A DNA stretch of 64,000 bases from Patescibacteria group bacterium (GCA_028707495.1 JAQWAS010000006.1:664-64663); one strand, 5' to 3'. Shown: positions 20,673-57,885, counted from the stretch's first letter. Notes: a model not told the origin generated them from the sequence alone. Program-made: numbers and translations.

Positions 20673-20701
20673 TTGACAAGAAATTTAATTTATGCTAGAA
20701 T
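20673..20701 (+). promoter_or_regulatory. Strong sigma70-type promoter P1 (TTGACA-17-TAGAAT with TGc extended -10), a member of a six-copy promoter family
   Basis: TTGACAAGAAATTTAATTTATGCTAGAAT matches sites at 55939, 56911, 49931(-), 47068(-) and 53552(-). Confidence 0.7.
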
Positions 20702-20849
20702 ATAGATAGATAATAATTATGGTTCTTTGATATAATATTTAATTGCGAAAAGAACAGACTGTTAATGCGGTTGGTTGGTTATCTGACTGATTGCCTTAGT
20801 GGTCTACTCTTTTCGCAATTATACAAAACAAGTTTTCCAAGGAGGAAAG

Positions 20850-21341
20850 ATGGAATGGTGCAAGCAAGACGGTATCATTTATTTCACTGTCACTAGTGAC
20901 ACGACCGGCGAAGGGTGGATCGAGCGTTTCAAAGACCAAGGATTCGATGTTAGCGATTACGCCCAAGGCGTACTTCGTTCACCGGATTTCAAACCGACGA
21001 AGGGAGTGACAAGAAAAATTGCTATCATCATGGGTACAACCTGGGATCATTATAGAGATAGGACCACCAAAAACATCCGTGCCAAGGCATCAGAGCTTGG
21101 CTTTACCACCCCAAGTGGTGAAGTCGCCTGTCTTATCAAAGAGCAATTCTCTGACGAGAAGATTAAAGCCATGGGTCTTTACTGGATTGTCACCATGCAC
21201 GAGCCCATTTATGTTAACGGCGATCCGTTGCTACTCGACGCTAGCATCTCCCGGGTGGTCACGTACTATGGCAATCCCGACAGGAGGTGGAGCCGTGGCG
21301 ATGGGTTCGCTTTCGAGGTCCCGCAAGTTTCTGGCTCTTAA
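20850..21341 (+). CDS. Hypothetical 163 aa protein with GC content well above its surroundings
   Basis: Start chosen at the ATG at 20850, which is preceded by AAGGAGG; the ORF-track start at 20799 lacks an RBS. Promoter P1 lies upstream and an intrinsic terminator downstream. No signal peptide. Confidence 0.55.
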   Translation: MEWCKQDGIIYFTVTSDTTGEGWIERFKDQGFDVSDYAQGVLRSPDFKPTKGVTRKIAIIMGTTWDHYRDRTTKNIRAKASELGFTTPSGEVACLIKEQFSDEKIKAMGLYWIVTMHEPIYVNGDPLLLDASISRVVTYYGNPDRRWSRGDGFAFEVPQVSGS

Positions 21342-21401
21342 GCCTTGGATCTTTGAGCTGTTGAACTTGGAATTTTAGCCCTTGGCTATTGTCGGGGTTA
21401 T

Positions 21402-21440
21402 GCGGGGCGCAATACAATACAAATTGCGCCCCTTTTTTAT
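21402..21440 (+). terminator. Rho-independent terminator (gcggggcgcaat...attgcgcccc followed by TTTTTTATTTT)
   Basis: 10-bp GC-rich stem followed by a T-tract. Confidence 0.8.
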
Positions 21441-21496
21441 TTTCAATAGCTAAAAAGACGGATATGAGATATAATGAAATATAAAACAATTTAAGT

Positions 21497-21633
21497 TGTC
21501 ATTCCCGCGTAGGCGGGAATCCAGGGTTAACAACTTTTAACTTTTTATAGAATAAGCCATATTTAATTTAAAGAGATTTTTTAAATTAAAGTATTTATTT
21601 AATCAATCCTGGATCCCCAATTAGGGATGACAA
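21497..21633. repeat. Copy D of the dispersed repeat family; about 137 bp with terminal inverted repeats TGTCATTCCC...GGGATGACA and an internal hairpin cccgcgtaggcggg
   Basis: The terminal inverted repeats are related to copy B (TGTCATTCTG). Confidence 0.65.
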
Positions 21634-21677
21634 TAAATTAATTTTTAATTTTTGAGATTTAATTTTTAATTTATTCA

Positions 21678-23120
21678 ATGTCTTTGACTCGTAAAATAGC
21701 ACACCAGACAATTATTCAGACTTTGGGTAAGGTTTTTGGTTTGGTAATTGCTTTGATTAGTATTGGTTTAATCACGCGTTATTTGGGAGCTGAAAAATAC
21801 GGCGTGTATACGGCGGTTTTAGTTTTCCTAAATTTATTTGGCGTGTTGGCTGATTGGGGCTTACATTCAATGTTAATTCAGTTTGCCAGTCAGCCCGGTA
21901 CTGATTTAAATAAAATTTTCAACAACATTTTTACTTTAAGGGTTTTATTACTGATTGGGTTTTTGTTTTTAGCCATCGTTGTCGGTTGGTTAATTCCTGT
22001 TTATTCTTTAGAGATTAAAATTGGGATTACGACGTCCTGTTTAGTTTTGTTTTTTGTCTCAGTTAATCAACTTTTAACCGCAGTTTTCCAACTTAAAATT
22101 AAAATGCAGGCCGTAGCTTGGGGAGAATTTTTAGCCAAATTGACTGGTTTAATTTTTATTATAATCGCTATCTTTTTAAAATTAAATATTTATTTTATTT
22201 TATTAAATGTAGTTTTGGGTGGTTTGGTGAGATTTTCAATTTTATTTTTTAAAGCTAAAAAATATATTCAATTTAAATGGCAATTTGACTTTGATTTATG
22301 GAAAAAAGTTTTAAATAAAACATGGCCATTAGCCTTATCAATTGTTTTTAGTATGATGTATTTTTTAATGGATACAATTATTCTATCTTGGACTCAACCA
22401 AATTTTGACGTTGGGATTTATGGCGCGAGTTATAAAGTTTTAGAAAATTTAATTGTTTTTCCAGTGATGTTTATTGGTTTAGTTTTTCCACTTTTGAGTC
22501 AGAGTTGGCAAAATCAAGATTTAGAAAAATTTAAGCATGTTTTGCAAAAAGCTTTTGATTTTTTAATCATCATTGTTACGCCTTTAATTTTTGGCGGTTA
22601 TTTAATTGGTAATAAATTAATGGTTTTTGTTGCCGGATCAGAATTCTATCTATCTGGTGAAGTGCTTAAAATTTTATTATTAGCTGTTGGTTGGCTGTTT
22701 GTGGGGCAATTATTTGGTCATACGATCATTGCCTTGGATTTACAAAAGAAAATGATGTGGTGTTATTTAATTATTGCGATTATGAGTTTAATTGGCTATA
22801 GTATTTTAATTCCACGTTATTCATATTTTGGCGCAGCTTGGATGACAGTCGGAGCTGAAATGTTGATGGTAATTTTAAGCAGTCTGTTAATTTTTAAAAA
22901 AACGCATTGGCTACCCGAGATTAAAACATTATTTAAAAGTTTATTCGCCAGTTTGATTATGGCTGGGGCGATATATTTAATTTTAGATTTAAATTTGTTA
23001 ATTAATTTAATAATTGGAATTATAGTTTATTTTAGCATCTTATATTTAATTGGTGGTGTTAAGAAGCAAGTTTTGCAAGAGATATTGAGGTTGAAGTATA
23101 ATACCAATGACACTAATTAA
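21678..23120 (+). CDS. Polysaccharide biosynthesis / oligosaccharide flippase (Wzx-like, MOP superfamily)
   Basis: 480 aa with about 12-14 TM helices; the N-terminal pattern is typical of Wzx/MurJ-like flippases. Confidence 0.7.
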   Translation: MSLTRKIAHQTIIQTLGKVFGLVIALISIGLITRYLGAEKYGVYTAVLVFLNLFGVLADWGLHSMLIQFASQPGTDLNKIFNNIFTLRVLLLIGFLFLAIVVGWLIPVYSLEIKIGITTSCLVLFFVSVNQLLTAVFQLKIKMQAVAWGEFLAKLTGLIFIIIAIFLKLNIYFILLNVVLGGLVRFSILFFKAKKYIQFKWQFDFDLWKKVLNKTWPLALSIVFSMMYFLMDTIILSWTQPNFDVGIYGASYKVLENLIVFPVMFIGLVFPLLSQSWQNQDLEKFKHVLQKAFDFLIIIVTPLIFGGYLIGNKLMVFVAGSEFYLSGEVLKILLLAVGWLFVGQLFGHTIIALDLQKKMMWCYLIIAIMSLIGYSILIPRYSYFGAAWMTVGAEMLMVILSSLLIFKKTHWLPEIKTLFKSLFASLIMAGAIYLILDLNLLINLIIGIIVYFSILYLIGGVKKQVLQEILRLKYNTNDTN

Positions 23121-23149
23121 ATACTAATGACACTAATAGATATAATATT

Positions 23150-24499
23150 ATGACTTTATTTATTTTATTAACATTGTTATTTGCTTTATTTATTTTTTTG
23201 AGTTGGCAAAATATTCAGTTAGCCTTGGGCTTATTATTTTTATGTTTGCCAAGTTATTTGATTCGATTTAATGTCGGATTTTTGCCGACGACAGTTTTAG
23301 AATTGATGATTTTAGCCATTTTTTTAACTTGGTTAGTTAAGAAATTGATTCGACATGAGCGAGTTTTAATTATAAAAAAATGGTTTTGGATTATTTTAAT
23401 GTGGCTGTTGGGTGCGACCTTGGCTTTATTAGTTTCGGCTGACTTAAGGGTGGCGGCTGGGATTTGGAAAGCTTATTTTATAGAACCAATTATAATTTTT
23501 ATAATTTTAATTGATGTTATTCAAAAACGTCGAGACATTAATTTAATTATGCATTTTTTAAGCGTAAGTGTGGTTAGTGTTGCACTTTTAGCGATTTATC
23601 AAAAAATAACGGGTTGGTTAGTACCGATCGAATTTTGGCAAGATGGGCGGATGACGAGTTTTTTTGGTTATCCCAATGCAATTGGTTTATACGTGGCGCC
23701 AATAGTTATTTTACTTTTGGCTCAGATTAAAGAAATTTTTAAAAATAAAAAAGATTTAAAATGGGGAGTCTTTTATTTAATAACTATTATTTTGGGCATT
23801 ATCAGCTTAGTTTTAGCAAAGTCGGAGGGGGCAGTAGTTGGCTTGTTGGCCGGAATTATTTTTTTAGCTTTATTAAGTGGGCCTAGAGAAAGAAAAACCA
23901 TTTTAATTATAATAATTTTAGCAATTTTAATGATAAGTTTTTATCAGCCTTGGCAAGAATATGCTAGAGAAAAAATAACTTTAAACGATTTGTCTGGTCA
24001 GATTCGTCGCCAACAGTGGAAAGAAACCTGGCAGATGTTGCAAGATGGCCGAATTTTAAGTGGTTCGGGTCTAGCCAGTTATCAGATAGCTATTGAACCT
24101 TATCATCAGGATGGGATTTTTTTTAACGCTGAGAAAGACCCTGATTTTAAGCGCAAAATAATTTTATTTAGCGATGAATATAAGGCGGAACACTGGCAAC
24201 CGGTAGAAATTTATTTATACCCGCACAACATAATTTTAAATTTTTGGACTGAATTGGGTTTGGCCGGATTATCAATTTTTATTTTGTGTCTTTTGGAATT
24301 TTTTAAAACTGGTGGATTAATTTTGAAAAATAAAAAAAATTATTTAGTTATCGGCTTGATGGCTAGTATGATTGTTATTTTAATTCATGGCTTAGTGGAT
24401 GTACCGTATTTTAAAAATGATTTAGCTATTTTATGGTGGCTATTTATTGGTTTAATAACAATTTTAGATATTAAATATCAAACGCGTTATGAAAATTAG
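23150..24499 (+). CDS. O-antigen ligase/polymerase-like polytopic membrane protein
   Basis: 449 aa multi-TM protein with a periplasmic loop and a Wzy_C-like region, adjacent to the flippase. Confidence 0.55.
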   Translation: MTLFILLTLLFALFIFLSWQNIQLALGLLFLCLPSYLIRFNVGFLPTTVLELMILAIFLTWLVKKLIRHERVLIIKKWFWIILMWLLGATLALLVSADLRVAAGIWKAYFIEPIIIFIILIDVIQKRRDINLIMHFLSVSVVSVALLAIYQKITGWLVPIEFWQDGRMTSFFGYPNAIGLYVAPIVILLLAQIKEIFKNKKDLKWGVFYLITIILGIISLVLAKSEGAVVGLLAGIIFLALLSGPRERKTILIIIILAILMISFYQPWQEYAREKITLNDLSGQIRRQQWKETWQMLQDGRILSGSGLASYQIAIEPYHQDGIFFNAEKDPDFKRKIILFSDEYKAEHWQPVEIYLYPHNIILNFWTELGLAGLSIFILCLLEFFKTGGLILKNKKNYLVIGLMASMIVILIHGLVDVPYFKNDLAILWWLFIGLITILDIKYQTRYEN

Positions 24500-25199
24500 A
24501 TTACAAAAATTTTTATCACAAGCCGGCTGTTGTTCGCGTCGGCAAGCAGAGGAATTAATCCAACAAAAAAGGATTAAAATTAATAACCAAGTGGCACGGC
24601 TAGGCGATAAAGCAGAAATTAACAAAGACGAAGTTAGGTTTGATGAGCGTGTTATAAAATTGACTTCGAACTTAATTTATATTAAATTAAATAAACCTAG
24701 GGGATATACTTGCACGCACGGTAAATTTGAAAAAGAAAAAAATATTTTTGAATTAATTAATCTTAAAGAAAAATTATTAATTGTTGGTCGTTTAGATCGA
24801 GAGAGTCGTGGTTTAGTATTATTAACGACAGATGGTGAATTGATGCAACAAATTACGCATCCGAGTTATCGACACGAAAAAGAATATATAGTTAAAATTA
24901 GCCAAAAAATTACCGAAGAAGAAATTAAAAATTTAATCCGAGTTTTTAGGGCTGGACTAGATTTGGGACCCGATTTTGGGAAAGTAAGAGTTAAAAATAT
25001 AGAATATTTGAAACAAAGTCAATTTAAAATAATTTTAATCCAAGGTAAAAAACGACAAATTCGCCAAATGTTTCAAAAATTAAATTACCAAGTTGCTGAT
25101 TTACAAAGAATTAGAATAAAAAACATCAAATTAGAAAAATTAGCAGAAGGTAAATGGCAATATTTAACTCAAACAGAAATTAATAATTTAAAAAAATAA
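24489..25199 (+). CDS. Pseudouridine synthase, RsuA/RluB family (S4 domain plus catalytic domain)
   Basis: N-terminal S4 RNA-binding motif (RLQKFLSQAGCCSRRQAEELI) and the catalytic Asp motif (GRLDRESRGLVLLT). Confidence 0.85.
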   Translation: MKIRLQKFLSQAGCCSRRQAEELIQQKRIKINNQVARLGDKAEINKDEVRFDERVIKLTSNLIYIKLNKPRGYTCTHGKFEKEKNIFELINLKEKLLIVGRLDRESRGLVLLTTDGELMQQITHPSYRHEKEYIVKISQKITEEEIKNLIRVFRAGLDLGPDFGKVRVKNIEYLKQSQFKIILIQGKKRQIRQMFQKLNYQVADLQRIRIKNIKLEKLAEGKWQYLTQTEINNLKK

Positions 25200-25214
25200 T
25201 TTAATTTAAAAATT

Positions 25215-25523
25215 ATGAATATAACAAAAATTTTTCCTCAAAGTTTTCTGTGTGCACTCGGTACGACTGCGTATATAATTTTAGTAAGTTTAATAATGAA
25301 TAAGGGCGAACAAATTTTTGGTCAGACAGATGGTGTGGCTGGTCCAATAGCTTTTTTGCTTTTGTTTGTTTTTTCAGCGGCTCTGACTGGAAGTTTAGTT
25401 TTGGGTAAGCCGGTTTTACTTTATTTAGATGGAAAAAAGAAAGAAAGTATCCAGATGTTTTTAACAACTTTGGGTTGGTTATTAATTATGACGATGCTAG
25501 CGTTAGTGTTGAGCGTAGCTTAA
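25215..25523 (+). CDS. Small 3-TM membrane protein (102 aa)
   Basis: Hydrophobic profile only; chosen over the overlapping antisense ORF 25213..25467. Confidence 0.35.
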   Translation: MNITKIFPQSFLCALGTTAYIILVSLIMNKGEQIFGQTDGVAGPIAFLLLFVFSAALTGSLVLGKPVLLYLDGKKKESIQMFLTTLGWLLIMTMLALVLSVA

Positions 25524-25539
25524 CTAATTCAAAAAATAA

Positions 25540-25625
25540 GGAGAGGTCGCATAGTTGGTCGATTGCGCTGGTTTCGAAAACCAGTAGACTGTAAAGTCTC
25601 GAGGGTTCGAATCCCTCCCTCTCCG
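25540..25625 (+). tRNA. tRNA-Ser (CGA), long variable arm, CCA not encoded
   Basis: Acceptor GGAGAGG/CCTCTCC, anticodon stem CTGGT/ACCAG with loop TTCGAAA (CGA), long variable arm, T-loop TTCGAAT. Confidence 0.85.
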
Positions 25626-25652
25626 TTTTTAGGGTTTTATTAAAAAATTTTT

Positions 25653-26411
25653 ATGTCCCAATACTACAAAATCCCACGCGATTCAAGATGGAACTTTGAC
25701 CCCAATCAAAAAAATAACTTTAAACTAAGTCGCTCTAAATTGGCTTTATTTTTAGAATGTCCACGTTGTTTTTATCTTGATAATCGTTTAGGTCTTAAAC
25801 GACCAGCGGGTTATCCTTTTAATTTAAATTCGGCCGTGGATTATTTATTAAAAAAAGAATTTGATATTCATCGAGCTGAAAAAAAACAACATCCTTTACA
25901 GGAAAAATATGGCCTTGATGCTCGGCCGGTAGCACATGAAAAATTAGACGTTTGGCGTGAAAATTTTCAAGGTGTTGAATATTTACACCCTGAAACTAGT
26001 TTATTAATTACCGGTGCGATTGATGATTTGTGGATTAATTCCAAAGGAGAATATATCGTGGTAGATTACAAGGCCACTTCAAAAAATGATGAGATTACAG
26101 AATTAGATCAAGATTGGCAAGATAGTTATAAACGCCAGATGGATATTTATCAATGGTTGCTACGTCGAAACGGACTTAAGGTTTCAGATACAGGCTATTT
26201 TGTTTATTGTAATGGCCGAACCGACACAGAAGCTTTTGATGCCAGATTAGAATTTGATGTGACTTTGGTACCATATAAAGGCGATGACAGTTGGGTCGAT
26301 AAAGCTATTTTAGATGCTTATGAATGTTTAATGTCTAACCAAATTCCAGAATCTAATTCTGAATGTGATTATTGTCTTTATCGTCAAACAATTCAAAAAT
26401 ATCTTAAATAA
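25653..26411 (+). CDS. PD-(D/E)XK nuclease with Cas4/RecB-like Cys cluster
   Basis: N-terminal CPRC, a central D...DYKATSK (D-x-n-D/E-x-K) motif and C-terminal CDYC, matching the four-Cys Fe-S arrangement of Cas4/AddB-type nucleases. Confidence 0.55.
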   Translation: MSQYYKIPRDSRWNFDPNQKNNFKLSRSKLALFLECPRCFYLDNRLGLKRPAGYPFNLNSAVDYLLKKEFDIHRAEKKQHPLQEKYGLDARPVAHEKLDVWRENFQGVEYLHPETSLLITGAIDDLWINSKGEYIVVDYKATSKNDEITELDQDWQDSYKRQMDIYQWLLRRNGLKVSDTGYFVYCNGRTDTEAFDARLEFDVTLVPYKGDDSWVDKAILDAYECLMSNQIPESNSECDYCLYRQTIQKYLK

Positions 26412-26413
26412 AT

Positions 26414-27346: not shown

Positions 27347-27384
27347 GAGTTTACTCTTTTTTGTTTTTTATCTATAATATATAT

Positions 27385-28254: not shown

Positions 28255-28263
28255 TCTATAAGT

Positions 28264-29634: not shown

Positions 29635-29664
29635 AAAATTCAAAATAAAAAATTAAGAGATAAG

Positions 29665-30402: not shown

Positions 30403-30415
30403 TAAATAAAAATAT

Positions 30416-30790: not shown

Positions 30791-31003
30791 AGATCGGCTT
30801 GTTGTGGATAGTTTTTTTGTGGTATAATAATTTAATAGTGATAATAATTAATAATATCTTTTAAAAATTTGTCTAGATTAAGGTTATAAATTAGAATCCG
30901 TTTGGGGAGGTTTAATGTTAATCAACATTGCCCACCTGAGGCGGACTAATAATTTGTAACTAAATCAAAGATTTAGACAAATTATTAGAAAGGGGGTGAA
31001 AAT

Positions 31004-31381: not shown

Positions 31382-31392
31382 AAGAATATTAA

Positions 31393-31803: not shown

Positions 31804-31822
31804 AAAGTAATTAGTATAAAAA

Positions 31823-31860
31823 AAATAACAGATTGAATTTAATCTGTTATTTTTTTATTT
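31823..31860. terminator. Bidirectional hairpin terminator (aacagattgaatttaatctgtt flanked by A/T runs)
   Basis: Perfect 8-bp stem with a T-tract on both strands, between convergent genes. Confidence 0.6.
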
Positions 31861-46397: not shown

Positions 46398-46417
46398 AAA
46401 AGTCGCACACTGTGCGA

Positions 46418-46888
46418 CTAATGGAATAACTTAGTGATCCCTTTTAAGATCCGTGAAAATAAGTTTACACGTTTGATTGGAATAACTGGTTGATGGTTGA
46501 TTACGGCTTGTTCCTTCATTATTTCTTGTTTAACTTTTTTGTCTAACCATTCAAGACAAATGAAGATATTGTAAATAGGTAAGCCGTGAAGCTGTGATGG
46601 GTGTTTATTTTCGAGAATTTTGTAAAATTCGAGATTAGACCATTCTTTTTTATACTTTTCTACCCACGAGTTAACAGCCCGTCGAACATACAGAAGATCT
46701 TTCGGGTCTTTGGCTTGCCGTATTCTAGTTTGAATTTCTTGAGATCCTTGGAATAGAAATTGCCAAAGGGTTTCTCTGCCAAAGACTATCCAAATGTTGG
46801 CTAATCTAGCCATGGCTAAATCGAGAATTTTTGCCGACGATTCGTCTATATTAATCGTGCATAGAAATTCCGAATGAGAATCTGTCAT
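46418..46888 (-). CDS. Hypothetical 156 aa protein behind a long GC-rich structured leader
   Basis: Start set at MTDSH, preceded by GGGGGAAT + 4 nt + ATG. Promoter P5 lies about 180 nt upstream. Confidence 0.5.
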   Translation of the reverse strand: MTDSHSEFLCTINIDESSAKILDLAMARLANIWIVFGRETLWQFLFQGSQEIQTRIRQAKDPKDLLYVRRAVNSWVEKYKKEWSNLEFYKILENKHPSQLHGLPIYNIFICLEWLDKKVKQEIMKEQAVINHQPVIPIKRVNLFSRILKGITKLFH

Positions 46889-47067
46889 TTTATTCCCCCT
46901 TAGTAAAATGTGCAAAAAATTTTCCCTGCATGGGCCTGCACTCAAGAGAATTTTTGTTAGGAGAAGTCGAGGTATAAACCCAGAGGAACCCTGACAAAAA
47001 CCCCCATGCTTGTCGTGAGTGCAGACTTATACAGGGAAAATGAAATTAATTTATTAACTTACTTTAT

Positions 47068-47096
47068 ATCCTAGCATAAATAAAAAATCTTGTCAA
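47068..47096 (-). promoter_or_regulatory. Promoter P5 of the six-copy family (TTGACAAGATTTTTTATTTATGCTAGGAT, minus strand)
   Basis: Reverse complement of 47068-47096; -35 TTGACA, 17-nt spacer, -10 TAGGAT. Confidence 0.65.
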
Positions 47097-47121
47097 GGGT
47101 ATAACTCTCTTTTTTATACAC

Positions 47122-48135: not shown

Positions 48136-48137
48136 AT

Positions 48138-49163: not shown

Positions 49164-49176
49164 TTTAAAAAAGATA

Positions 49177-49204
49177 AAACCCGACTTTTGTGCCGGGTTT
49201 GTTT
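49177..49204. terminator. Bidirectional hairpin terminator (aaacccgac...gccgggttt)
   Basis: Stem followed by T-tracts on both strands, between convergent queA and the lipoprotein gene. Confidence 0.6.
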
Positions 49205-49211
49205 GGAGAGG

Positions 49212-49904
49212 TTATCGAAGACTCTCCTTGTTTCTTTGTTCGAGATAATTTAGCTCATTTGTGCAAGCTAACGGATCAACGTCAGTGATTTGAATCTGTC
49301 GATCCTTAATTTCGCGCCGAATATAATCAATGGCTGGTTGAACATCCCTCCAGTCCCATTCGTCTCTAACGACACGAAGAGAATCTCGGATGTCTTTAAT
49401 GAGCGGATCTGAGTTTTTGCAACTAAGATCCAATAGTTTGTCGAGGTGTTCTTCTGACGTCCCGAGAGATTCAATTGGTACGCCAGCGGAATCAGCATAA
49501 GAAAGTATTTTCCAATACTCCTCAGAAACATCTTCATCGCTACACTTCGTTGTGGCTATTTTTATCCAACGATAGCCTTCGGAAATATAGCCCTTTTTTT
49601 GACACTCAGCGATTTTTTCTTTGGTGATTTCGAGGCTGTCGAGTTCGATCTGCGCCTTGTCGGCTAGAGAATAGAGATTTTCTATTCTTTCACTGACATT
49701 TTCTTCGAGGCACTTATCTTGAATCCATGCCCATTTATTAAGAATTTTTTTTTCATATTCTGTGGGGCTTGGCTTTCCGACTAAATCACAGGCACTTGTT
49801 ATGCCGGCGATAATAATGATTATAAGTGTTATACCTATCAAAGCGGGTGTTACCTTGCGAATTTTCTTTTCCATTTTTCTCCTTTGTTTATTTTCAATAT
49901 ACAA
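49212..49904 (-). CDS. Hypothetical lipoprotein (230 aa), GC-richer than surroundings
   Basis: N-terminal TM/signal with a lipobox-like ITSAC. Driven by promoter P4 and the RBS AAAGGAG. Confidence 0.55.
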   Translation of the reverse strand: MYIENKQRRKMEKKIRKVTPALIGITLIIIIIAGITSACDLVGKPSPTEYEKKILNKWAWIQDKCLEENVSERIENLYSLADKAQIELDSLEITKEKIAECQKKGYISEGYRWIKIATTKCSDEDVSEEYWKILSYADSAGVPIESLGTSEEHLDKLLDLSCKNSDPLIKDIRDSLRVVRDEWDWRDVQPAIDYIRREIKDRQIQITDVDPLACTNELNYLEQRNKESLR

Positions 49905-49930
49905 TCTACACTATTTTTATTTCTATTTAC

Positions 49931-49959
49931 ATCTTAGCATATATTTAATTTCTTGTCAA
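49931..49959 (-). promoter_or_regulatory. Promoter P4 of the six-copy family (TTGACAAGAAATTAAATATATGCTAAGAT, minus strand)
   Basis: Reverse complement of 49931-49959; -35 TTGACA, 17-nt spacer, -10 TAAGAT. About 20-nt leader to the AAAGGAG RBS. Confidence 0.7.
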
Positions 49960-50004
49960 GAGTTGCTTTGTTTAAATATTTAAGCTATAATAATTTGAGA
50001 TTCA

Positions 50005-50079
50005 GGCGCGATAGCCAAGTGGTAAGGCGACGGTCTGCAAAACCGTTATTCACGGGTTCGAATCCCGTTCGCGCCTCCA
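50005..50079 (+). tRNA. tRNA-Cys (GCA), CCA encoded
   Basis: Acceptor GGCGCGA/TCGCGCC, anticodon stem ACGGT/ACCGT with loop CTGCAAA (GCA), T-loop TTCGAAT. Confidence 0.85.
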
Positions 50080-50130
50080 AAATAAAAAAAAACACCCCTT
50101 GGGTTTTTTACTAAATTTTTTGAAATAAAT

Positions 50131-50625
50131 CTAACTTAACTCTATTCTAATTTTTTCTAATTCTAGGCCAAGATCAAGGCCTTGTTTTTTGTATTTAACT
50201 CCAATTTCGCTTATAATTTGATATAAATTTTCTCCACGGGCTACGCGTTGCTGAATTTCGACTTTAATTTTTTCGGTGATTATTTCCTTATATTTATTTT
50301 CTAATTCAGAGCTAGGCCATTCTTCACGATTACTGTTTTTGATTTTTTCTAAAGCCAAAAGAATAATTTGATTTAAATCAATGGGTTCAGAAGAAATTTG
50401 ATTTATATCGATTAAAATATCATTGACTTTTTTGCTCCAATTCAACCAATCAACATCAACGCCCTTATTATTTAAATTATTAATTTCAGAAATAACGTGA
50501 TTAACGGCCTGATCTATTTTATCTTGCAAAATTATATGAGAAGATTCTCTTTCGTGAGCGCAAGTAACCATATTTTTAAATTTAAAATTATATTTTATTT
50601 TATTAAAAATAATCAAAGCTGTCAA
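50131..50625 (-). CDS. Hypothetical protein (164 aa; the real start may be the internal Met at MVTCAHE)
   Basis: ORF only; no recognisable motifs. Confidence 0.4.
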   Translation of the reverse strand: MTALIIFNKIKYNFKFKNMVTCAHERESSHIILQDKIDQAVNHVISEINNLNNKGVDVDWLNWSKKVNDILIDINQISSEPIDLNQIILLALEKIKNSNREEWPSSELENKYKEIITEKIKVEIQQRVARGENLYQIISEIGVKYKKQGLDLGLELEKIRIELS

Positions 50626-50663
50626 CTTTTTTAATTTTATAAAAAGCGTTATAATATAAGATT

Positions 50664-51572
50664 ATGAATCAAAAAGATAAATTTATTATTATTGATGCTA
50701 ATGCGGTTTTACATCGAGCTTGGCACGCCTTACCGCCACTTGAAACAGAGAGTGGTCAGGTTGTGAATGCAGTTTATGGTTTTATTTCAGTTATAATTAA
50801 AATTTTGCGGGAATTTAAGCCAAATTATATGGCGGCGTGTTTTGATATGCCAGGGCCGACTTTTAGACATAAAGAATTTAAAGAATATAAAGCGGGACGA
50901 GAAAAACAACCTGATGAATTTTATGAACAAATTCCAATCACTCAAGGCGTTTTAAAAGATTTTGATATTCAAGTTTTAGGTTTAAGCGGTTATGAAGCTG
51001 ATGATTTGATCGGTTTTTTGTCTCACAAGGTTGATGGCGGTTTAGAAAAAATTATTGTGACTGGCGACATGGATGCTTTGCAATTAGTAGATAAATCAAC
51101 TTGGGTTTATAATTTAAAAAAAGGTATCAGCGAAACTGAAATTTTTGATGAAGCCGCTGTTTTCGAAAGATATGGTTTTAAGCCTGAGCAATTAATTGAT
51201 TATAAAGCTTTACGTGGAGATCCCTCTGACAACATCCCGGGAATTAGAGGAATTGGCAAAAAAACAGCGACACAATTAATTCAGCAATTTAGTTCATTAG
51301 AAGTTTTATATCAACAAGTTGAACAAGGTGAGGTTGAAGGTGTCAGTCAAAGGATTAGGCAAATGCTTTTAGATCAAAAGGATCAAGCTTTTTTAAGTAA
51401 AAAATTAGCCACCATTGTTTTGGATGTTCCTTTGGATTTTAATTTAGAAAATTTTAAAACTAAAAAATTAGATGTAGATAAAATTAGTGTTAAATTTAGT
51501 CAATTGGGATTTAAATCTTTGTTAAAAAGACTAGATGATGTCGTTGGTATTAAGCAGGAAAAATTGATTTAA
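50664..51572 (+). CDS. Stand-alone 5'-3' exonuclease (Pol I N-terminal / FEN-like domain)
   Basis: IIIDANAVLHRAWHA..., the acidic metal-binding clusters, and a helix-hairpin-helix (GIRGIGKKTA), 302 aa. Confidence 0.85.
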   Translation: MNQKDKFIIIDANAVLHRAWHALPPLETESGQVVNAVYGFISVIIKILREFKPNYMAACFDMPGPTFRHKEFKEYKAGREKQPDEFYEQIPITQGVLKDFDIQVLGLSGYEADDLIGFLSHKVDGGLEKIIVTGDMDALQLVDKSTWVYNLKKGISETEIFDEAAVFERYGFKPEQLIDYKALRGDPSDNIPGIRGIGKKTATQLIQQFSSLEVLYQQVEQGEVEGVSQRIRQMLLDQKDQAFLSKKLATIVLDVPLDFNLENFKTKKLDVDKISVKFSQLGFKSLLKRLDDVVGIKQEKLI

Positions 51573-51584
51573 ATTTTTTTAATT

Positions 51585-52556: not shown

Positions 52557-52613
52557 TTTTTATTCAAACAAAAAAGCAATTCAATCAAGAATTACTTTTT
52601 TTATTTATCAAAA

Positions 52614-52886
52614 TTATTTTTTCTTGTCAGTTTTATTAGCTTTTTTCATTAAGCCTGATTTTTTGCGAGCGGCCGTGTTTTTTTTAAAAACATTATTTTT
52701 GGCAGCTTTATCAATAGCCTTTTGGGTTTTTTGCATCCATTCATTAATTTTGGATTTATCACTCTGATCAATAGCTTTTAATGTTTGTTTAACTAAATAT
52801 TTGATATTAGCTTTAATATCTTTATTGTGTTGTGTTCTTTTAATCTCTTGACGAAGAGACTTTTTAGCTGATTTTGATTGTGGCAT
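52614..52886 (-). CDS. rpsT: Ribosomal protein S20
   Basis: MPQSKSAKKSLRQEIKRTQHNKDIKANIKYLVK matches the S20 consensus. Confidence 0.8.
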   Translation of the reverse strand: MPQSKSAKKSLRQEIKRTQHNKDIKANIKYLVKQTLKAIDQSDKSKINEWMQKTQKAIDKAAKNNVFKKNTAARKKSGLMKKANKTDKKK

Positions 52887-52919
52887 ACTATATTAAATAA
52901 AAATTAAAAATTAAAAATG

Positions 52920-53234
52920 TTAAGCCAGGTCGTCATAAATATCCTCTTCGTAGTTATCTTCTTCTTCGGCTGGCATTTCATCTAGAAGTTGAGCTTCTTG
53001 TTTAATAATTTCATCCCAGGTTTTATCACTTTGACCGGTCAAGGCTTCAAATTTGGCTTTAAAATTATCATTAAAATCTTTAATTAATTCAGGTTCTTGC
53101 TCAAAGATTTCATTTAATTTTTCTAGCACACCTTCTGGTAAAATAGGTAAAAAAACAAGAAGGTCATTTTGATCTTCTGGCGAAACCTGCGATGTACTTA
53201 AGGTCTGTTCTATTTTTTTTAATGCTTCAGACAT
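52920..53234 (-). CDS. Hypothetical acidic 104 aa protein
   Basis: ORF with very acidic C-terminus; likely co-transcribed with 53254..53445 from promoter P6. Confidence 0.4.
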   Translation of the reverse strand: MSEALKKIEQTLSTSQVSPEDQNDLLVFLPILPEGVLEKLNEIFEQEPELIKDFNDNFKAKFEALTGQSDKTWDEIIKQEAQLLDEMPAEEEDNYEEDIYDDLA

Positions 53235-53253
53235 CCTCCTAAATCAATAATAA

Positions 53254-53445
53254 TTAAGCAGCTTGTCGATATTTACGTTCGATAAGGTTGGGGTTTCTTT
53301 TCTCGTTATCACATTCATTTGTTATAAAAGCAGCAGCTATAGCCAAGTTTTCAGATTCTTCTCTAATAAAAGCTAAATTAGGCTCATGTTCATGAGTTTC
53401 TTTGTTGGCAATTTCTTCAATTTGTGGATTATATGTTTCTGACAT
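53254..53445 (-). CDS. Hypothetical 63 aa protein
   Basis: ORF immediately downstream of promoter P6. Confidence 0.35.
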   Translation of the reverse strand: MSETYNPQIEEIANKETHEHEPNLAFIREESENLAIAAAFITNECDNEKRNPNLIERKYRQAA

Positions 53446-53551
53446 ATTTTTTGTTATCCCCAGTTAAACGACCTTTAAGTATATTATAATACATTAAAGA
53501 TTTTTTGTGAAGGGATTTAATTAAACAAGGTGTTAATTAAATTGATACACC

Positions 53552-53580
53552 ATCTTACACCCGATCTAAATTCTTGTCAA
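53552..53580 (-). promoter_or_regulatory. Promoter P6 of the family (TTGACAAGAATTTAGATCGGGTGTAAGAT, minus strand)
   Basis: Reverse complement of 53552-53580; -35 TTGACA, 17-nt spacer, -10 TAAGAT. The spacer is less conserved than in P1-P5. Confidence 0.55.
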
Positions 53581-53608
53581 GGGGTAAGCGGGGGATAATG
53601 TTAAAAGA

Positions 53609-53835
53609 TGTCATTCTAAATCCGCCTGGAGTGGATGAAAGAAATTGTCATGCTGAACTTTAGTCAGCCAAATCGGAGGATGTTTCAGCATCCGTTAGTA
53701 TGGGAAGTGTCATGCTGAACTTGTTTCAGCATCTGTTAACGCTTAAAATATTGATTCTTAAAAAACGTTTTTTTTCGACCACAGATCCCTGAACTGAATT
53801 CAGGGCAGGCTCTGAAATAAATTCAGGATGACAAT
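53609..53835. repeat. Copy E of the dispersed hairpin-repeat family (two gtcatgctgaac...ttcagcatc hairpins; ccctgaactgaattcaggg; ctgaaataaattcaggatgacaa)
   Basis: Contains the same 30-mer as copy C and the same 23-mer ctgaaataaattcaggatgacaa. Confidence 0.7.
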
Positions 53836-53951
53836 TCAAGCGTTTCTATAATGTTCGACCCAGATTTAACTAGATAAAAATAAATATTGATTATAATATT
53901 GAAATTAATTTATAGCTTTAATCAAAATATAATTTATGCTATAATAAACCC

Positions 53952-54512
53952 ATGTTGAGTTTTATCAAGGGTAAAATTAAATTTAAAGATGAGCGGAGTG
54001 TAATTATTCAAACCGGAGATTTAGGTTTTGAAGTTTATTTAACAGAGCCAATTTTAAAGGAATTAATTTTAAATCAAGAAGTGGAATTATTTACTTATTT
54101 GCATACACGAGAAAATATCATGGAATTATATGGATTTATAAATAGGCTAGAAATGAATTTTTTTGAAAAATTAATCGAAGTGCCAGGCATTGGACCCAAA
54201 TCAGCTTTAAGCGTTTTATCATTAGCCAGTCCAGATGAATTAATTGAAGCTATCAATCAAGATAATGTTGAAATTTTAACCAAAGTTTCTGGTATTGGCA
54301 AAAAAACAGCGCAACGAATTGTGGTGGAATTAAAAACCAAATTAAATTCTAAATCTAAAATTTTAGATCAAACCGATAGCCAAACATTTGATGCCCTGCA
54401 AAAACTAGGTTATTCCGTGCAAGATATTCGTCAGGCGATCAAAGAAATGCCGACAGATGTTGAGGGTTTGGAAAATAAAGTTAAAGCAGCTTTGAAGATT
54501 TTGGGAAAATAA
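53952..54512 (+). CDS. ruvA: Holliday junction branch-migration protein RuvA
   Basis: OB-fold N-terminus and tandem HhH (IEVPGIGPKSA, VSGIGKKTAQRIV), 186 aa. Confidence 0.85.
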   Translation: MLSFIKGKIKFKDERSVIIQTGDLGFEVYLTEPILKELILNQEVELFTYLHTRENIMELYGFINRLEMNFFEKLIEVPGIGPKSALSVLSLASPDELIEAINQDNVEILTKVSGIGKKTAQRIVVELKTKLNSKSKILDQTDSQTFDALQKLGYSVQDIRQAIKEMPTDVEGLENKVKAALKILGK

Positions 54513-54581
54513 AGATTAAAGCATAAACCCGAAATTACAAATTCTAAATAAATTAAAAATTTAAAATTACAGATTCAAAAC

Positions 54582-55568
54582 ATGCAGGTTGTAGAAATTA
54601 AAAATCAACAAAAGTGGAATGAGTGGGTTGTCCGTGAGAGCGGACAATTTTTACAATCTTGGCAATGGGGAGAATTGCAACAAAAATTGGGTCGTCGGAT
54701 TTGGCGTTTGGGCGTGCAAGCGGGAGATAAAATTTTAGGCGGGACTTTAATTATCAAACACGATTTGCCCTTTAACAAAAGTTATTTATATTCACCGCGT
54801 GGTCCAATTTTAAATCAAAAACAAGATTTGAAAATAAAAGAAATTTTAATAAATAAAATAAAAGAAATAGCTCAACAAGAAAAAGCCATATTTTATAAAT
54901 GCGAACCTAGCGACCAAAATTTAATTGATCAAAATTTTAAAAAAGTTAAATCAGTCCAACCGGCCAATACTTTGATTTTAGATTTAAAATTAAGCTTGGA
55001 AGAATTATTAAAAAATATGCATCCCAAAACGCGTTACAATATTAAATTAGCTCAACGTAAGGGGGTTAAAATTGAAGAAGGTCGGGATATAAGTTTATTT
55101 TTAAATTTAATACATCAAACAGCCAAGCGTGATGAATTTAATCCGCATGCAGATGAATATTATCGGAAAATATTTCAAGAATTTAAATATAATCAGGGAT
55201 CGGGTTTCAAATTATTTATCGCTAAATTTCAAGATCGGGTTATCGCCACCAATTTGATTATGTTTTTTGGCCAGACAGTTACTTATGTACATGGTGCGAG
55301 TAGCAATCAAGATAGAAACGTAATGGCACCATATTTATTACAATGGCAAGTGATTAAACAAGCGCAAGAGCAAGGGTTTAAATATTATGATTTTTGGGGC
55401 ATTAATCCGAGTGATGTCGGTTTGGGCTATTTGAAATCTTGGCAGGGGATTACGCGTTTTAAAACCAGTTTTAGTGGACAAGAAATAAATTATCCTGGCA
55501 CATTTGATTTGGTTTTAAAACCAGCTTGGTATCGGTTATATAATTTAATAAAAAAAATTAAAAATTAA
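54582..55568 (+). CDS. FemAB-family peptidoglycan interpeptide aminoacyltransferase-like protein
   Basis: 328 aa FemAB/FemX-like sequence (Q.W.W.E......R....V..G) with GNAT-like halves. Confidence 0.7.
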   Translation: MQVVEIKNQQKWNEWVVRESGQFLQSWQWGELQQKLGRRIWRLGVQAGDKILGGTLIIKHDLPFNKSYLYSPRGPILNQKQDLKIKEILINKIKEIAQQEKAIFYKCEPSDQNLIDQNFKKVKSVQPANTLILDLKLSLEELLKNMHPKTRYNIKLAQRKGVKIEEGRDISLFLNLIHQTAKRDEFNPHADEYYRKIFQEFKYNQGSGFKLFIAKFQDRVIATNLIMFFGQTVTYVHGASSNQDRNVMAPYLLQWQVIKQAQEQGFKYYDFWGINPSDVGLGYLKSWQGITRFKTSFSGQEINYPGTFDLVLKPAWYRLYNLIKKIKN

Positions 55569-55572
55569 TCTA

Positions 55573-55647
55573 GCCTCCATAGTTTAATGGATAGAACAAA
55601 GGATTCCGGATCCTTAGATCCAAGTTCGATTCTTGGTGGGGGTACCA
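55573..55647 (+). tRNA. tRNA-Arg (CCG), CCA encoded; the acceptor stem has two G-U pairs
   Basis: Anticodon stem AAGGA/TCCTT with loop TTCCGGA (CCG), D-stem GTTT/GAAC, T-loop TTCGATT; acceptor GCCTCCA/TGGGGGT. Confidence 0.7.
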
Positions 55648-55726
55648 GAGATAACAGATAACAAGTAACAGCTAACACCTAATTTTAATTAGGTTCTCAC
55701 CCAGAGGGTGATCAGTCTTTGGCTGA

Positions 55727-55750
55727 GATTCTTGGTGGGGGCATCAGAGA
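55727..55750. repeat. Imperfect direct repeat of the tRNA-Arg 3' end (gattcttggtgggggcatcagaga), about 100 bp downstream of the tRNA
   Basis: Compare 55628-55651 gattcttggtgggggtaccagaga. Confidence 0.6.
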
Positions 55751-55938
55751 CAATTTACAATCTACAACTCGCAACAGATGATAGACATAAAGTCCATTTT
55801 GGTGGATTTTTTTATTTTATTTTTTTAAATGTTTATTTATCCCGTTGACTTGTCGATTCGGCGGATAGGACAAACAAGAGTGAGTTTCTAGAAAATAAAA
55901 AGATTCAGTCATTAATAATGAGGCGGATTTTAAAAACC

Positions 55939-55967
55939 TTGACAAGAAATTTAATATATGCTAAGAT
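55939..55967 (+). promoter_or_regulatory. Promoter P2 of the family (TTGACAAGAAATTTAATATATGCTAAGAT)
   Basis: -35 TTGACA, 17-nt spacer, -10 TAAGAT with TGc extended -10. Confidence 0.7.
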
Positions 55968-56037
55968 ATTAACAGAACTTTGATATTAAAAAATAAAACA
56001 ACGGCAACAATAAAAACAAAAAAAACAGGAGGAAAAA

Positions 56038-56859
56038 ATGAAGACATTCATTCTTTGGATGTTGGTCGTGTTTTCGGTATCGGTCACTGTATTTGGTTAC
56101 GATGTAATTGACCGCGATTTGGGACTCGGCGATCCAGGTCTTAAATCTGCAGTGCCAGAATCGGCAGTTTCGGACACTGAATCCACTACTCAGCCAATCA
56201 CCTCTTTCAGTGCATTGGTCAGTAAAGAAATGACCGATAGCGAAGAAACGGAAGAGGATATAGAAGACACGATGTTTTTCGTGGAAGAAGAAGAAACATT
56301 AAGCGATGGAAGTGTCCTCAATGCCCAAAACTTTTTAGGTATTGATTTCGGCACCGGCGCCTCATTTGCTCCATCGAAAGATTCGCCAGAATATGAAGAA
56401 TGGTCTAAGACAGTGAACGAAAATTTCATTTTTTCTGTCGAGGTTTCTAATTTTTCCTTTTCTGACATTGAGGCCAGAATCACAGATCCAATGGATTTTG
56501 TTCCATTGGCCGGCGGAAGGGATGTTATTATTTTCCGATTAAGTTGGGAAAATTTAAATCTTGATAGTATCGCCGGATTGGGATTGAATGAAACAAAAAA
56601 TTATCGCTGTCAAATGGCGGTAGTTGATCAGAGGGGCGCCAAAAACGGTTTAAAAATCGTCGAAGTGCCTGTCTGGCAAGCTTTTCGTTCGCCGGCGCCA
56701 GACGATTTACCGTTCGAAAAAACTGAAGGGGGATTTGAAGGAGTAACATTTTATGATGTTTACTTCCGAGCCCCAAAGGGAGTTCATGCTATTTGGGTTC
56801 GTTTTTTAATAAACGGAACCAACATGACTGAATCGCTTTGTGATGTTCCCGTGGCGTAA
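56038..56859 (+). CDS. Hypothetical secreted protein (273 aa, signal peptide), GC-richer than surroundings
   Basis: RBS AGGAGGAAAAA + ATG; N-terminal signal peptide; an acidic Ser/Thr/Glu-rich region then a probable beta-rich domain. Confidence 0.55.
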   Translation: MKTFILWMLVVFSVSVTVFGYDVIDRDLGLGDPGLKSAVPESAVSDTESTTQPITSFSALVSKEMTDSEETEEDIEDTMFFVEEEETLSDGSVLNAQNFLGIDFGTGASFAPSKDSPEYEEWSKTVNENFIFSVEVSNFSFSDIEARITDPMDFVPLAGGRDVIIFRLSWENLNLDSIAGLGLNETKNYRCQMAVVDQRGAKNGLKIVEVPVWQAFRSPAPDDLPFEKTEGGFEGVTFYDVYFRAPKGVHAIWVRFLINGTNMTESLCDVPVA

Positions 56860-56870
56860 CACCGCCATTC

Positions 56871-56900
56871 AAGGGGGCGAATTTTCGCCCCCTTTTTTAT
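56871..56900 (+). terminator. Rho-independent terminator (aagggggcgaattttcgccccc followed by TTTTTTATTTT)
   Basis: 7-bp GC stem followed by a T-tract. Confidence 0.8.
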
Positions 56901-56910
56901 TTTAATAATA

Positions 56911-56939
56911 TTGACAAACAATTTTATTTATGCTAGGCT
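56911..56939 (+). promoter_or_regulatory. Promoter P3 of the family (TTGACAAACAATTTTATTTATGCTAGGCT)
   Basis: -35 TTGACA, 17-nt spacer with the conserved TTTATGCTAGG core, and a weaker -10. Confidence 0.6.
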
Positions 56940-56999
56940 ATAAATAGTTCGTTCTTTAAAATGTTTATAAAAAATGAAAAATAAAACCAAGGAGGAAAA

Positions 57000-57842
57000 A
57001 TGGCGAAAAAAGATCAGGGAGGTTCATATGGAGGCGGTGGTATAGAATTTACATCGAAAAAAGAAGAGAGACCATCCACCAAACCTTATACACAGAGACC
57101 ACCAAATTCAAATCTTGGCATGAGTACGGCGTATAAGATATTATTAATGCCACTCATTTTATTGGTTGTGGCGTTGGTTGCCTTTGTGACTATTAAAAGT
57201 CCACAACACGATTTCTTTTCTTTTTTTAAGAAAGGAATTAATCAAGCACCGCCACCCGAAATAATCATGAAAATGAAACAATCGGCCGAATCAAATCAAC
57301 CGATTTCTCAAAATTCTATGGGTCGGCAAGAACAACCTCTTCAGAACACGAAGGCCACATCGCAACATGATACGGTTGATACCATTAGCGATTATCTCAG
57401 CGAAGAAGAACTTGCTAGATGGATTGCCAGTAACATTCCTAAAGAATTTCATTTTTTGGCTAAACACTTGGTTGAAAATGGGTACAACAAGCCAAAGGAA
57501 ATTTTAAAGGTCTTGATAGACGAAGGGTCTTTACAGGGGAGAGATATAGCAAGGTTGGTTGTCTTGTATGAAGGGTTGACTGATACTTCAGGAATTAAGT
57601 CCGTAGATAGTTTGATTTACGCATCTCAAAATGAAAATGAGAAAATAGAAATTGTTATCGATGAAATCGAGGATCCCGAGCTTCAGCCAACTGAGCAGAA
57701 TCAACAGAGCGGGTATGTAACCATATTAAAACCCCTCAATCAATCAAAGACGGTTAATTCAGATAATTCTGGGGCGATGAATTCTCGCAAATCGGGCCGA
57801 GTGACTATTCTTCAACCACTTGTTTCGTCCGAAACACAATAG
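57000..57842 (+). CDS. Hypothetical single-pass membrane protein (280 aa), GC-richer than surroundings
   Basis: RBS AAGGAGGAAAA + ATG; Gly-rich N-terminus, one TM helix (ILLMPLILLVVALVAFVTI), acidic C-terminal region; a hairpin plus T-tract follows. Confidence 0.55.
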   Translation: MAKKDQGGSYGGGGIEFTSKKEERPSTKPYTQRPPNSNLGMSTAYKILLMPLILLVVALVAFVTIKSPQHDFFSFFKKGINQAPPPEIIMKMKQSAESNQPISQNSMGRQEQPLQNTKATSQHDTVDTISDYLSEEELARWIASNIPKEFHFLAKHLVENGYNKPKEILKVLIDEGSLQGRDIARLVVLYEGLTDTSGIKSVDSLIYASQNENEKIEIVIDEIEDPELQPTEQNQQSGYVTILKPLNQSKTVNSDNSGAMNSRKSGRVTILQPLVSSETQ

Positions 57843-57885
57843 GGAGCTAAAAACGCCCCCTATTTTATTTTTTGTTTATTTTATT

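Follow-up and report, generated by a model that had tools for sequence, protein, structure and literature searches.

Closely similar putative promoters head unrelated accessory genes in a Patescibacteria genome: a candidate case of promoter reuse

Why should nearly the same promoter sequence stand in front of several genes that are unrelated to each other? This question is raised by a 64,000-nt stretch of a small, AT-rich genome of the Patescibacteria, or candidate phyla radiation (CPR) (GCA_028707495.1, JAQWAS010000006.1:664-64663; hereafter the window, with positions counted from its first letter), in which a sigma-70-type promoter motif recurs at six dispersed sites. All counts given here cover these 64 kb and the fragments of other genomes that were fetched for comparison. 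The explanation we favor, with about even confidence, is that the sites make up a lineage-specific family of reused, full-consensus sigma-70/sigma-A promoters, which head self-contained units for accessory products. The elements of such a promoter would be a C at -37, TTGACA, a 17-bp A/T spacer (AAGAAATTWAAT), TATGC (fitting TRTGn), TARRAT, and an A/T-rich start region, ATAnATAG. Each copy would head a unit composed of the promoter, a real 5' leader (at times a long hairpin), an AGGAGG Shine-Dalgarno sequence (SD), a gene, and a GC-stem intrinsic terminator.

Six promoter sites had been claimed in a note made from the sequence of the window alone (the original prediction), and all of them are present:

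20671-20711, + strand: promoter copy at 20673, core family; TTGACAAGAAATTTAATTTATGCTAGAAT, made up of C-37, TTGACA, the 17-bp spacer AGAAATTTAATTTATGC, TAGAAT, and the start region ATAGATAGA
55937-55977, + strand: promoter copy at 55939, core family; TTGACAAGAAATTTAATATATGCTAAGAT, then ATTAACAGA
49921-49961, - strand: promoter copy at 49931, core family; TTGACAAGAAATTAAATATATGCTAAGAT, then GTAAATAGA; back to back with the promoter of a tRNA-Cys gene
47066-47098, - strand: promoter copy at 47068, diverged relative; TTGACAAGATTTTTTATTTATGCTAGGAT; divergent from ruvB
56909-56949, + strand: promoter copy at 56911, diverged relative; TTGACAAACAATTTTATTTATGCTAGGCT, then ATAAATAGT; the terminator of gene g273 lies immediately upstream
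53552-53580, - strand: marginal sixth copy at 53552; TTGACAAGAATTTAGATCGGGTGTAAGAT, without the TATGC block

Searching the window with the pattern TTGACA-N17-TARRAT returned 6 matches, while 0.08 were expected from dinucleotide-preserving shuffles. Five of these are sites listed above; the remaining match, at 50597 (-), is unrelated to the family. The copy at 56911 (+), whose -10 hexamer reads TAGGCT, lies outside the TARRAT pattern and was confirmed by reading the sequence. TTGACA is exact and the spacer is 17 bp long in 6/6 copies, the other -10 hexamers are TAGAAT, TAGGAT, and TAAGAT (three copies), and TATGC precedes the -10 in 5/6 copies, all except 53552 (-).

The similarity between the copies extends well beyond these elements. 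The three core copies, at 20673 (+), 55939 (+), and 49931 (-), differ at 1-3 of 29 positions and are about 90% identical across some 40 nt, from -38 to +9. Unsupervised repeat finding in the window recovered the family as well, at 40 nt with 90% identity and 39-41 nt with 85%. The shared stretch runs from C-37 to about +9 and reads CTTGACAAGAAATTWAATWTATGCTARRAT, then RTAnATAGA, at 85-90% identity over its roughly 40 nt. Of the two diverged relatives, both 47068 (-) and 56911 (+) retain TTGACAA, the TT and AT of the spacer, and TATGCTAGG, while the common ground of 53552 (-) with the family is limited to TTGACAAGAATTTAGAT and TAAGAT. A 9-bp palindrome, CTTGnCAAG, covers the -35 element in 5/6 copies.

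The original prediction had held that conservation of the spacer exceeds what chance or plain sigma-factor selection would produce. Both hexamers and the TRTGn block were left out of the scoring, and similarity at the remaining 24 positions was compared with that of random intergenic 41-mers of the window. A family-specific excess was found at these positions, with z scores of 7.5, 9.2, and 8.7 for three, five, and six copies, respectively, so that this part of the claim stands. The TATGC part of the spacer, in contrast, reads as an ordinary TRTGn extended -10 element (the "-16 region"), which is also seen on core promoters here (TATGCTACAAT at 2908 (-), TATGCTATATT at 13098 (-), and TATGCTATAAT at 53910 (+)). 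What is specific to the family is C-37, AAGAAATTWAAT, and the ATAnATAG start region.

By its sequence, the family matches the definition of an extended -10 (TRTGn) promoter of the Gram-positive sigma-A/sigma-70 type: it has TTGACA, a 17-bp spacer with A/T tracts, TATGC before TAnnnT, and a C upstream of the -35. Descriptions of the Ex element and of the UP-element cytosine are available (PMC12641261). The spacer sequence contributes to promoter strength, by up to 600-fold, as does a C at the UP element's 3' end, and a C just upstream of the -35 and spacer A/T tracts are reported to be general strength features across bacteria (PMC12641261). The family differs from extended -10 promoters at large in its tightness, being about 90% identical over 40 nt that include positions which RNA polymerase reads only weakly, in its non-consensus -10 (TARRAT), and in being confined, within the window, to accessory units, core genes having promoters of the -10-only type.

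These likenesses raise the possibility of a generic optimal promoter, in which every position from -38 to +9 would be selected for strength and the same sequence would stand before rRNA, ribosomal-protein, and other highly expressed genes elsewhere in the genome. A relaxed form of the motif, TTGACAANNNNTTNNATNTATGCTARRNT, is indeed common: a scan of genome contigs with the relaxed pattern found it at 80 or more loci, as single promoters, in Clostridia, Patescibacteria, and others. Core promoters of the window also use TATGCTA, and strong promoters in general share features outside the hexamers (PMC12641261). However, among the 80 generic TTGACAA...TATGCTA matches listed, the free spacer positions showed no preference for GAAA, which argues that AAGAAATTT is not a universal optimum. 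Neither did they converge on GAAATTTAAT, so that the AAGAAATTWAAT segment and the start region appear to be specific to the family. The -10 is moreover consistently sub-optimal, with TARRAT in place of TATAAT.

The original prediction had itself named a generic housekeeping promoter as the finding that would speak against it. In the 64-kb window, which contains neither an rRNA operon nor a large ribosomal-protein operon, none of the 7 tRNA genes (0/7) carries the motif upstream, and the same holds for rpsT, rpmF, infB, dnaA, the RNase Y gene, and ruvAB. Similarly, an Rfam scan of 40 loci from relatives found no case in which the motif lies directly upstream of a tRNA, an rRNA, or another known RNA. 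Within the available sequence, the motif is thus not that of a housekeeping promoter, and because it is absent from all housekeeping and stable-RNA genes seen, we consider a generic optimum quite improbable.

The units behind the promoters consist of the following features:

20740-20821, + strand: long, near-perfect hairpin in the 5' leader of g163 (145-nt leader; dG -44 kcal/mol, z = -5.8)
20850-21341, + strand: g163, 163 aa; SD AAGGAGG; GC 0.50, GC content at third codon positions (GC3) 0.56
21404-21438, + strand: intrinsic terminator of g163, GGGGCGCAAT...ATTGCGCCCC, then T6
46919-47041, - strand: conserved structured RNA; long irregular hairpin with a 10-nt bulge on its 5' side, ACGACAAGCA, then AAAAUUUUUU
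46418-46888, - strand: g156; SD AAGGGGGAAT; strict orphan; GC3 0.35
46401-46419, - strand: intrinsic terminator of g156
49212-49874, - strand: g220; SD AAAGGAG; lipoprotein-like N-terminus
49177-49200, - strand: intrinsic terminator of g220
56038-56859, + strand: g273; SD CAGGAGG; signal peptide; strict orphan; GC3 0.39
56871-56904, + strand: intrinsic terminator of g273, AAGGGGGCGAATTTTCGCCCCCTT, then a T-run; immediately upstream of the next promoter copy
57000-57842, + strand: g280; SD AAGGAGG; single-pass membrane protein without a family match; GC3 0.36
57839-57874, + strand: terminator of g280, ATAGGGAGC...GCCCCCTAT, then a T-run
52614-53445, - strand: unit of the 53552 copy, with a 63-aa gene (53254-53445), a 104-aa gene (52920-53234), and rpsT (52614-52886)

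To compare these units with their surroundings, SD presence and GC3 were tabulated for every gene of the window. An SD, of the AAGGAGG type, precedes 6/6 promoter-linked genes and 1/59 others (Fisher test, p = 8e-8), in agreement with the near-perfect SDs reported originally. Leaders of 50-180 nt lie between the repeated promoter and the genes. GC-stem terminators follow g163, g273, g280, g220, and g156, which confirms the strong terminators claimed for the units in these five cases, and the best intrinsic terminators of the 44-64 kb region all belong to units of the family. Core genes look different: their upstream 20 nt are pure A/T without an SD, and their promoters take the form TGnTAnAAT without a recognizable -35. 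Since -10-like boxes are enriched 6-12 nt ahead of start codons in the window, many core mRNAs may well be leaderless or nearly so. Examples of such boxes ending 6-12 nt before an ATG, often of the form TGnTAnAAT, are found at 53941-53954, 50650-50666, 13851-13866, and 60942-61335. The same core style, -10-only and SD-less, occurs on other Patescibacteria contigs (L128 and L130). The sharper contrast in this genome thus appears to be one of architecture, with -10-only promoters and no SD for core genes, and a full -35, a leader, and an SD for the promoter family.

Genes behind the promoter had also been described as richer in GC than their background. This applies to five of the units, with GC3 values of 0.35-0.56 compared with a mean of 0.24 for other genes (p = 0.005), and not to the genes of the 53552 (-) unit, since its 63-aa and 104-aa genes have GC3 values of 0.19 and 0.23. 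Codon bias linked to high expression was considered as the source of the high GC3 and rejected, because rpsT, rpmF, and infB have GC3 values of only 0.22-0.24. The small products of the 53552 (-) unit had been described as two acidic proteins. The 104-aa product is acidic, while the gene after it encodes ribosomal protein S20 (rpsT), which is basic; this gene has no SD and a GC3 of 0.22, and starts 33 nt past the 104-aa gene without a terminator in between.

The products of the promoter-linked genes are mutually unrelated, with nothing below E = 0.3 in an all-against-all BLASTP comparison, and the upstream neighbors of the copies are different core genes. The description of the cargo as unlinked, non-homologous genes, several of them for exported or membrane proteins, was therefore borne out. 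No family was found for these products in Pfam, PHROG, or NCBIfam. In searches of 5.8 billion proteins, g273 and g156 found only themselves and are strict orphans. The product of g220 belongs to a rare family, with 34 distant relatives among 1.84 billion representatives.

For g220, a strain variant of the same population is available. Two of the fetched contigs, L082 and L096, come from the population of the window, and L096 is a 97%-identical strain contig. Between the window and L096, codons of g220 have changed synonymously in 13 cases and non-synonymously in 9, which fits a real coding gene under purifying selection. Of the 37 differences between the window and L096, 26 fall inside one 137-nt patch of this gene (49541-49677; residues ~66-112), while the adjoining 618 nt, which hold the promoter, the tRNA-Cys gene, and the next open reading frame (ORF), show zero differences. 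The substitutions in the patch are not adenine-specific. This pattern suggests recombination or diversifying selection in the lipoprotein. The gene order of another contig, L122, which was compared for insertion of the g220 unit, differs strongly from that of the window.

Some of these features bring to mind foreign cassettes: GC-richer genes from a single donor or mobile element of higher GC content (for instance a phage or plasmid) that arrived together with the promoter, SD, and terminator of the donor. Such an origin would account for GC and GC3 above those of the host and unlike those of its ribosomal genes, for SD use foreign to the style of the host, for the two strict orphans g273 and g156, and for the miniature inverted-repeat transposable element (MITE)-like repeats nearby. 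However, PHROG and NCBIfam yielded no matches, and the motif is absent from the 2.9 million viral contigs of IMG/VR; a phage or defense origin was rejected on these grounds. The units are single and dispersed among core genes, and no integrase, att-like repeats, or target duplications accompany them. Phages such as T5 and T7 do have families of near-identical strong early promoters, which are read by the sigma-70 holoenzyme of the host and are similar in the spacer and the initial transcribed region as well. The copies in the window differ from these in that they are chromosomal and dispersed among core genes, without phage genes or a match in IMG/VR.

Repeats of the MITE type had been reported to abut two of the promoter copies directly. 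At two copies only, 20673 and 53552, such a repeat lies upstream, ending some 30-70 nt short of the promoter; the repeats are therefore near the promoters and not fused to them. Hairpin repeats of this kind (TGTCATGCTGAACTTGTTTCAGCATCTGT and inverted copies) are found in long intergenic regions at 11713-11818, 20495-20604, and 53642-53763, the first of these without a promoter. Beside them lie GC-rich palindromic repeats (also at 20229-20490), which give rise to spurious ORFs. A promoter carried by a MITE was rejected, as the similarity stops at the core promoter (about -38 and +9) and repeats exist without a promoter. None of the copies in the window was found to be part of a repeated element bounded by terminal inverted repeats or target duplications.

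The unit at 47068 (-) bears on the question of origin in its own right. Its product had been described as a 156-aa protein behind a structured leader. The structure is there, with dG -56.8 kcal/mol and z = -7.6 for 46919-47041, but it is more than a leader, since the unit starts with a conserved structured RNA that recurs on two other contigs, at 3143-3262 (+) of L101 and 4079-4193 (+) of L024. Among these three lineages the architecture is kept while the stem sequences differ; the bulge ACGACAAGCA(UGG) is invariant, and UUCUUGAG is conserved on the 3' strand. On L101 the RNA is likewise divergent from ruvB and is preceded by TTGACAAGAATTTTTATCTATGCTACGAT as its promoter. In L024, a complete Patescibacteria genome of high GC content, it stands alone, without an ORF, between a promoter and a terminator of its own. 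Because the RNA recurs while the proteins downstream of it differ (g156 in the window, an unrelated 97-aa protein in L101), the 47068 (-) copy may first of all drive a conserved small RNA, and g156 is perhaps reached by read-through. No Rfam family matched the structured leaders at gathering scores, with only chance-level hits in permissive searches, and when 435 kb of fetched loci were searched with a covariance model built on the hairpin RNA, no additional copies turned up.

L127 and the L101 group, whose RuvB proteins are 58-60% identical, have matching promoters at this ruvB-divergent position; in L127 the promoter is kept with a different structured RNA behind it. The 47068 unit thus appears ancient and syntenic in other lineages, which counts against cassettes delivered by a single donor.

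Further evidence comes from g163. Its 163-aa product, originally described as being of unknown function, has no Pfam model but is not an orphan: its family comprises more than 1,000 proteins of Patescibacteria that are 50-60% identical to it, most of them about 211 aa long. The g163 protein lacks the N-terminal ~48 aa of its family, its gene being truncated at the 5' end. A predicted structural model (predicted local distance difference test score, pLDDT, 92) matches C-type-lectin-like folds, including that of the Treponema variable protein TvpA, and g163 shares with targets of diversity-generating retroelements (DGRs) a C-type-lectin-like fold with the variable region at the C-terminus. In a relative, a member of the family is a bona fide DGR target. 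The homologue on L128 (locus 10001-12512) carries a 128-nt repeat, with the variable repeat (VR) at the 3' end of the gene (10488-10615) and the template repeat (TR) at 10984-11111; 12/12 mismatches between VR and TR fall at template adenines, and genes for bAvd and a reverse transcriptase (RVT_1) follow. This likeness to DGR variable proteins, such as Treponema TvpA and Bordetella Mtd, concerns the cargo g163 only and consists in the C-type-lectin fold; g163 differs from them in its missing N-terminal ~48 aa, and no template repeat, reverse transcriptase, or Avd was found in the 64-kb window. A full-length paralogue, PHS07_03345, which is 78% identical, is located on another contig of the same metagenome-assembled genome.

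Genes of the g163 family lie 10-17 GC points above their host in three hosts, which again fits a foreign source for the genes. The promoters of the homologues in L128 and L130, though strong-looking by sequence, lack the family spacer, and their leaders differ from that of g163. Given these differences and the 5' truncation, we find it suggestive that a local promoter, leader, and SD were placed before the rearranged g163 in this lineage. Since the promoters of the homologues elsewhere lack the family spacer, the promoter looks local and not imported. Taken together with the missing phage or mobile-element signal, the dispersal of the units, and the age of the 47068 unit, this makes a single donor of foreign cassettes an improbable source.

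A U-rich motif, GTTCTTTGATA or close variants of it, was noted near the predicted 5' end of 3/6 transcripts (20722-20732, 55977-55987, and 56951-56959), and the same motif occurs in the leaders of the g163 homologues, near 9880 in L130 and near 9850 in L128. The transcripts of these two homologues also share a hairpin leader and a conserved 3' untranslated region (CTTTGAACT...TAGCCCTTG). The form GTTCTTTRA, common to the leaders at 20673, 55939, and 56911 and those of L128 and L130, is not enriched in the window, with 59 occurrences against 75 expected.

The family extends beyond the window. A stricter form of the motif pattern was found at 45 loci in metagenome contigs (labelled L###), which were limited to fragments from the population of the window and to relatives. 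On L112, a contig with a GC content of 0.32 from the same metagenome series as L096, a copy beside smpB matches the 20673 copy at 41/46 nt (89%) and stands before a different ORF. On L111, a copy is followed by a hairpin leader of about 180 nt, an SD, and a 155-aa secreted orphan. These two copies indicate that the family has more members, again ahead of what look like unrelated accessory genes. The best pairs against relatives span 46-49 nt at 88-89% identity. Two observations were made at other loci in passing: in L015 (1-3805), a group I intron interrupts a Patescibacteria 23S rRNA gene, and the rRNA region also contains a promoter-like site of consensus type; in L114, a promoter match is followed, after about 340 nt, by a type II hammerhead ribozyme (1844-1899).

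In these respects the family resembles the putative mobile promoters described by Matus-Garcia, Nijveen and van Passel in 2012 (PMC3488235), which are similar promoters before non-homologous genes, with non-homologous upstream neighbors, in one genome and its close relatives. That study required alignments of 50 nt or longer with no less than 80% identity (PMC3488235), whereas the best alignments here reach 40 nt at 90% in the window and 46-49 nt at 88-89% against relatives, short of that threshold. No insertion sequence or MITE carrier was identified for the family, and the two diverged copies and the synteny in other lineages suggest an old, constrained family and not a recent jump.

Could the conserved positions instead be read by a regulator? 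In such a regulon, a DNA-binding protein (a repressor or a partner of sigma region 4) would recognize the family-specific part of the promoter and coordinate surface and variable proteins together with the small RNA. Candidate sites are the 9-bp palindrome over the -35 (CTTGACAAG), the AAGAAATTTAAT spacer, and ATAnATAG at the start site. The similarity outside the hexamers and TRTGn (z = 7.5-9.2), its sharp ends at about -38 and +9, and the presence of CTTGnCAAG in 5/6 copies would fit such a protein, and the spacer is kept at the ruvB-divergent promoter between lineages with 58-60% RuvB identity. The cargo, too, is enriched in exported, membrane, and binding proteins. However, no extended dyad or direct-repeat operator was found, no transcription-factor gene lies among or beside the units, and just those spacer positions that would matter to a regulator are variable in the three most diverged copies. 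Patescibacteria, moreover, have few regulators. The C at -37 and the spacer A/T tracts are also general determinants of promoter strength (PMC12641261). On balance, a regulon seems to us unlikely, though worth keeping in view.

Reuse of one promoter ahead of accessory genes requires less. The housekeeping holoenzyme would read these promoters through sigma regions 4, 3, and 2, without an activator, resulting in strong constitutive initiation, and translation of the mRNAs would then rely on SD pairing; nothing beyond this holoenzyme is needed mechanistically. The cargo would be accessory and lineage-specific: a C-type-lectin-fold protein of a DGR family, exported, membrane, and lipoprotein orphans, and one structured RNA. 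The block of about 40 nt would derive from common descent, a working promoter having been reused or propagated before new genes, and selection for strength would then have kept it. Common descent of the shared block is the most likely origin, because the copies are similar at weakly read positions, additional copies precede unrelated genes, and g163 is rearranged. It is from sequence that we infer promoter activity and strength, high expression, the leaderlessness of core genes, and the origin of the copies by copying.

Several points weigh against reuse by copying. The shared block of 40-49 nt nearly equals the footprint of a core promoter, without flanking homology or element boundaries, and no copying mechanism is evident. 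Selection on each position separately, or a bound factor, could also account for conservation with precisely this boundary. The sequence TTGACAAGAwTTTwwATnTATGCTA is kept at the ruvB-divergent position in two lineages whose RuvB proteins are only 58-60% identical; although ascertainment is biased here, the loci having been retrieved by means of this pattern, retention of the spacer over this distance points to functional constraint and not only to recent copying. Lastly, the sixth copy, at 53552 (-), is marginal and hardly fits the family. A promoter-like sequence at 53483-53511 (-), TTCACA-17-TATAAT, located 41 nt downstream of this copy, is better than the copy itself.

The contrast in architecture allows a more far-reaching, and to us rather doubtful, reading, in which two expression regimes coexist. 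Core genes would be -10-only and leaderless or SD-less, while an accessory set of surface proteins, variable binding proteins, and a small RNA would depend on the -35 and the SD and could be switched as a block, as a minimal global switch in a CPR bacterium that is poor in regulators and probably symbiotic. The target of the candidate factor behind such a switch could be sigma region 4, the conserved spacer, or the availability of the anti-SD.

Two other repeats were observed in the window. At 7457-7720, directly after a tRNA-Phe gene and overlapping its 3' end, lie five to six tandem 44-nt units (CACCACTATACATTTTTTTAAAAAGTTGACGTGGATGTCCTTGA), three of which are identical, and every junction between units recreates TTGACA. 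A GC-rich 46-nt repeat (GGGCAGAGGGGTTAGGGGTGCC...) occurs at 62350-62395 and 63438-63483, upstream of two adjacent Fic-domain genes, with 93% identity between its copies.

We regard the promoter family as a tidy case of promoter reuse, and not as a new kind of genetic element or system. If this reading is right, the units would provide Patescibacteria, whose genetics is only just becoming tractable, with a ready-to-use set of native expression parts, consisting of a strong promoter, a leader, a ribosome-binding site, and a terminator. The promoter would also flag lineage-specific genes that are probably made in quantity, among them a homologue of C-type-lectin-fold variable proteins, exported orphans, and an undescribed RNA, and these would be the first candidates for work on host interaction. 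Finally, the contrast with SD-less, apparently leaderless core genes would make this lineage a natural case of two initiation styles in one reduced genome.

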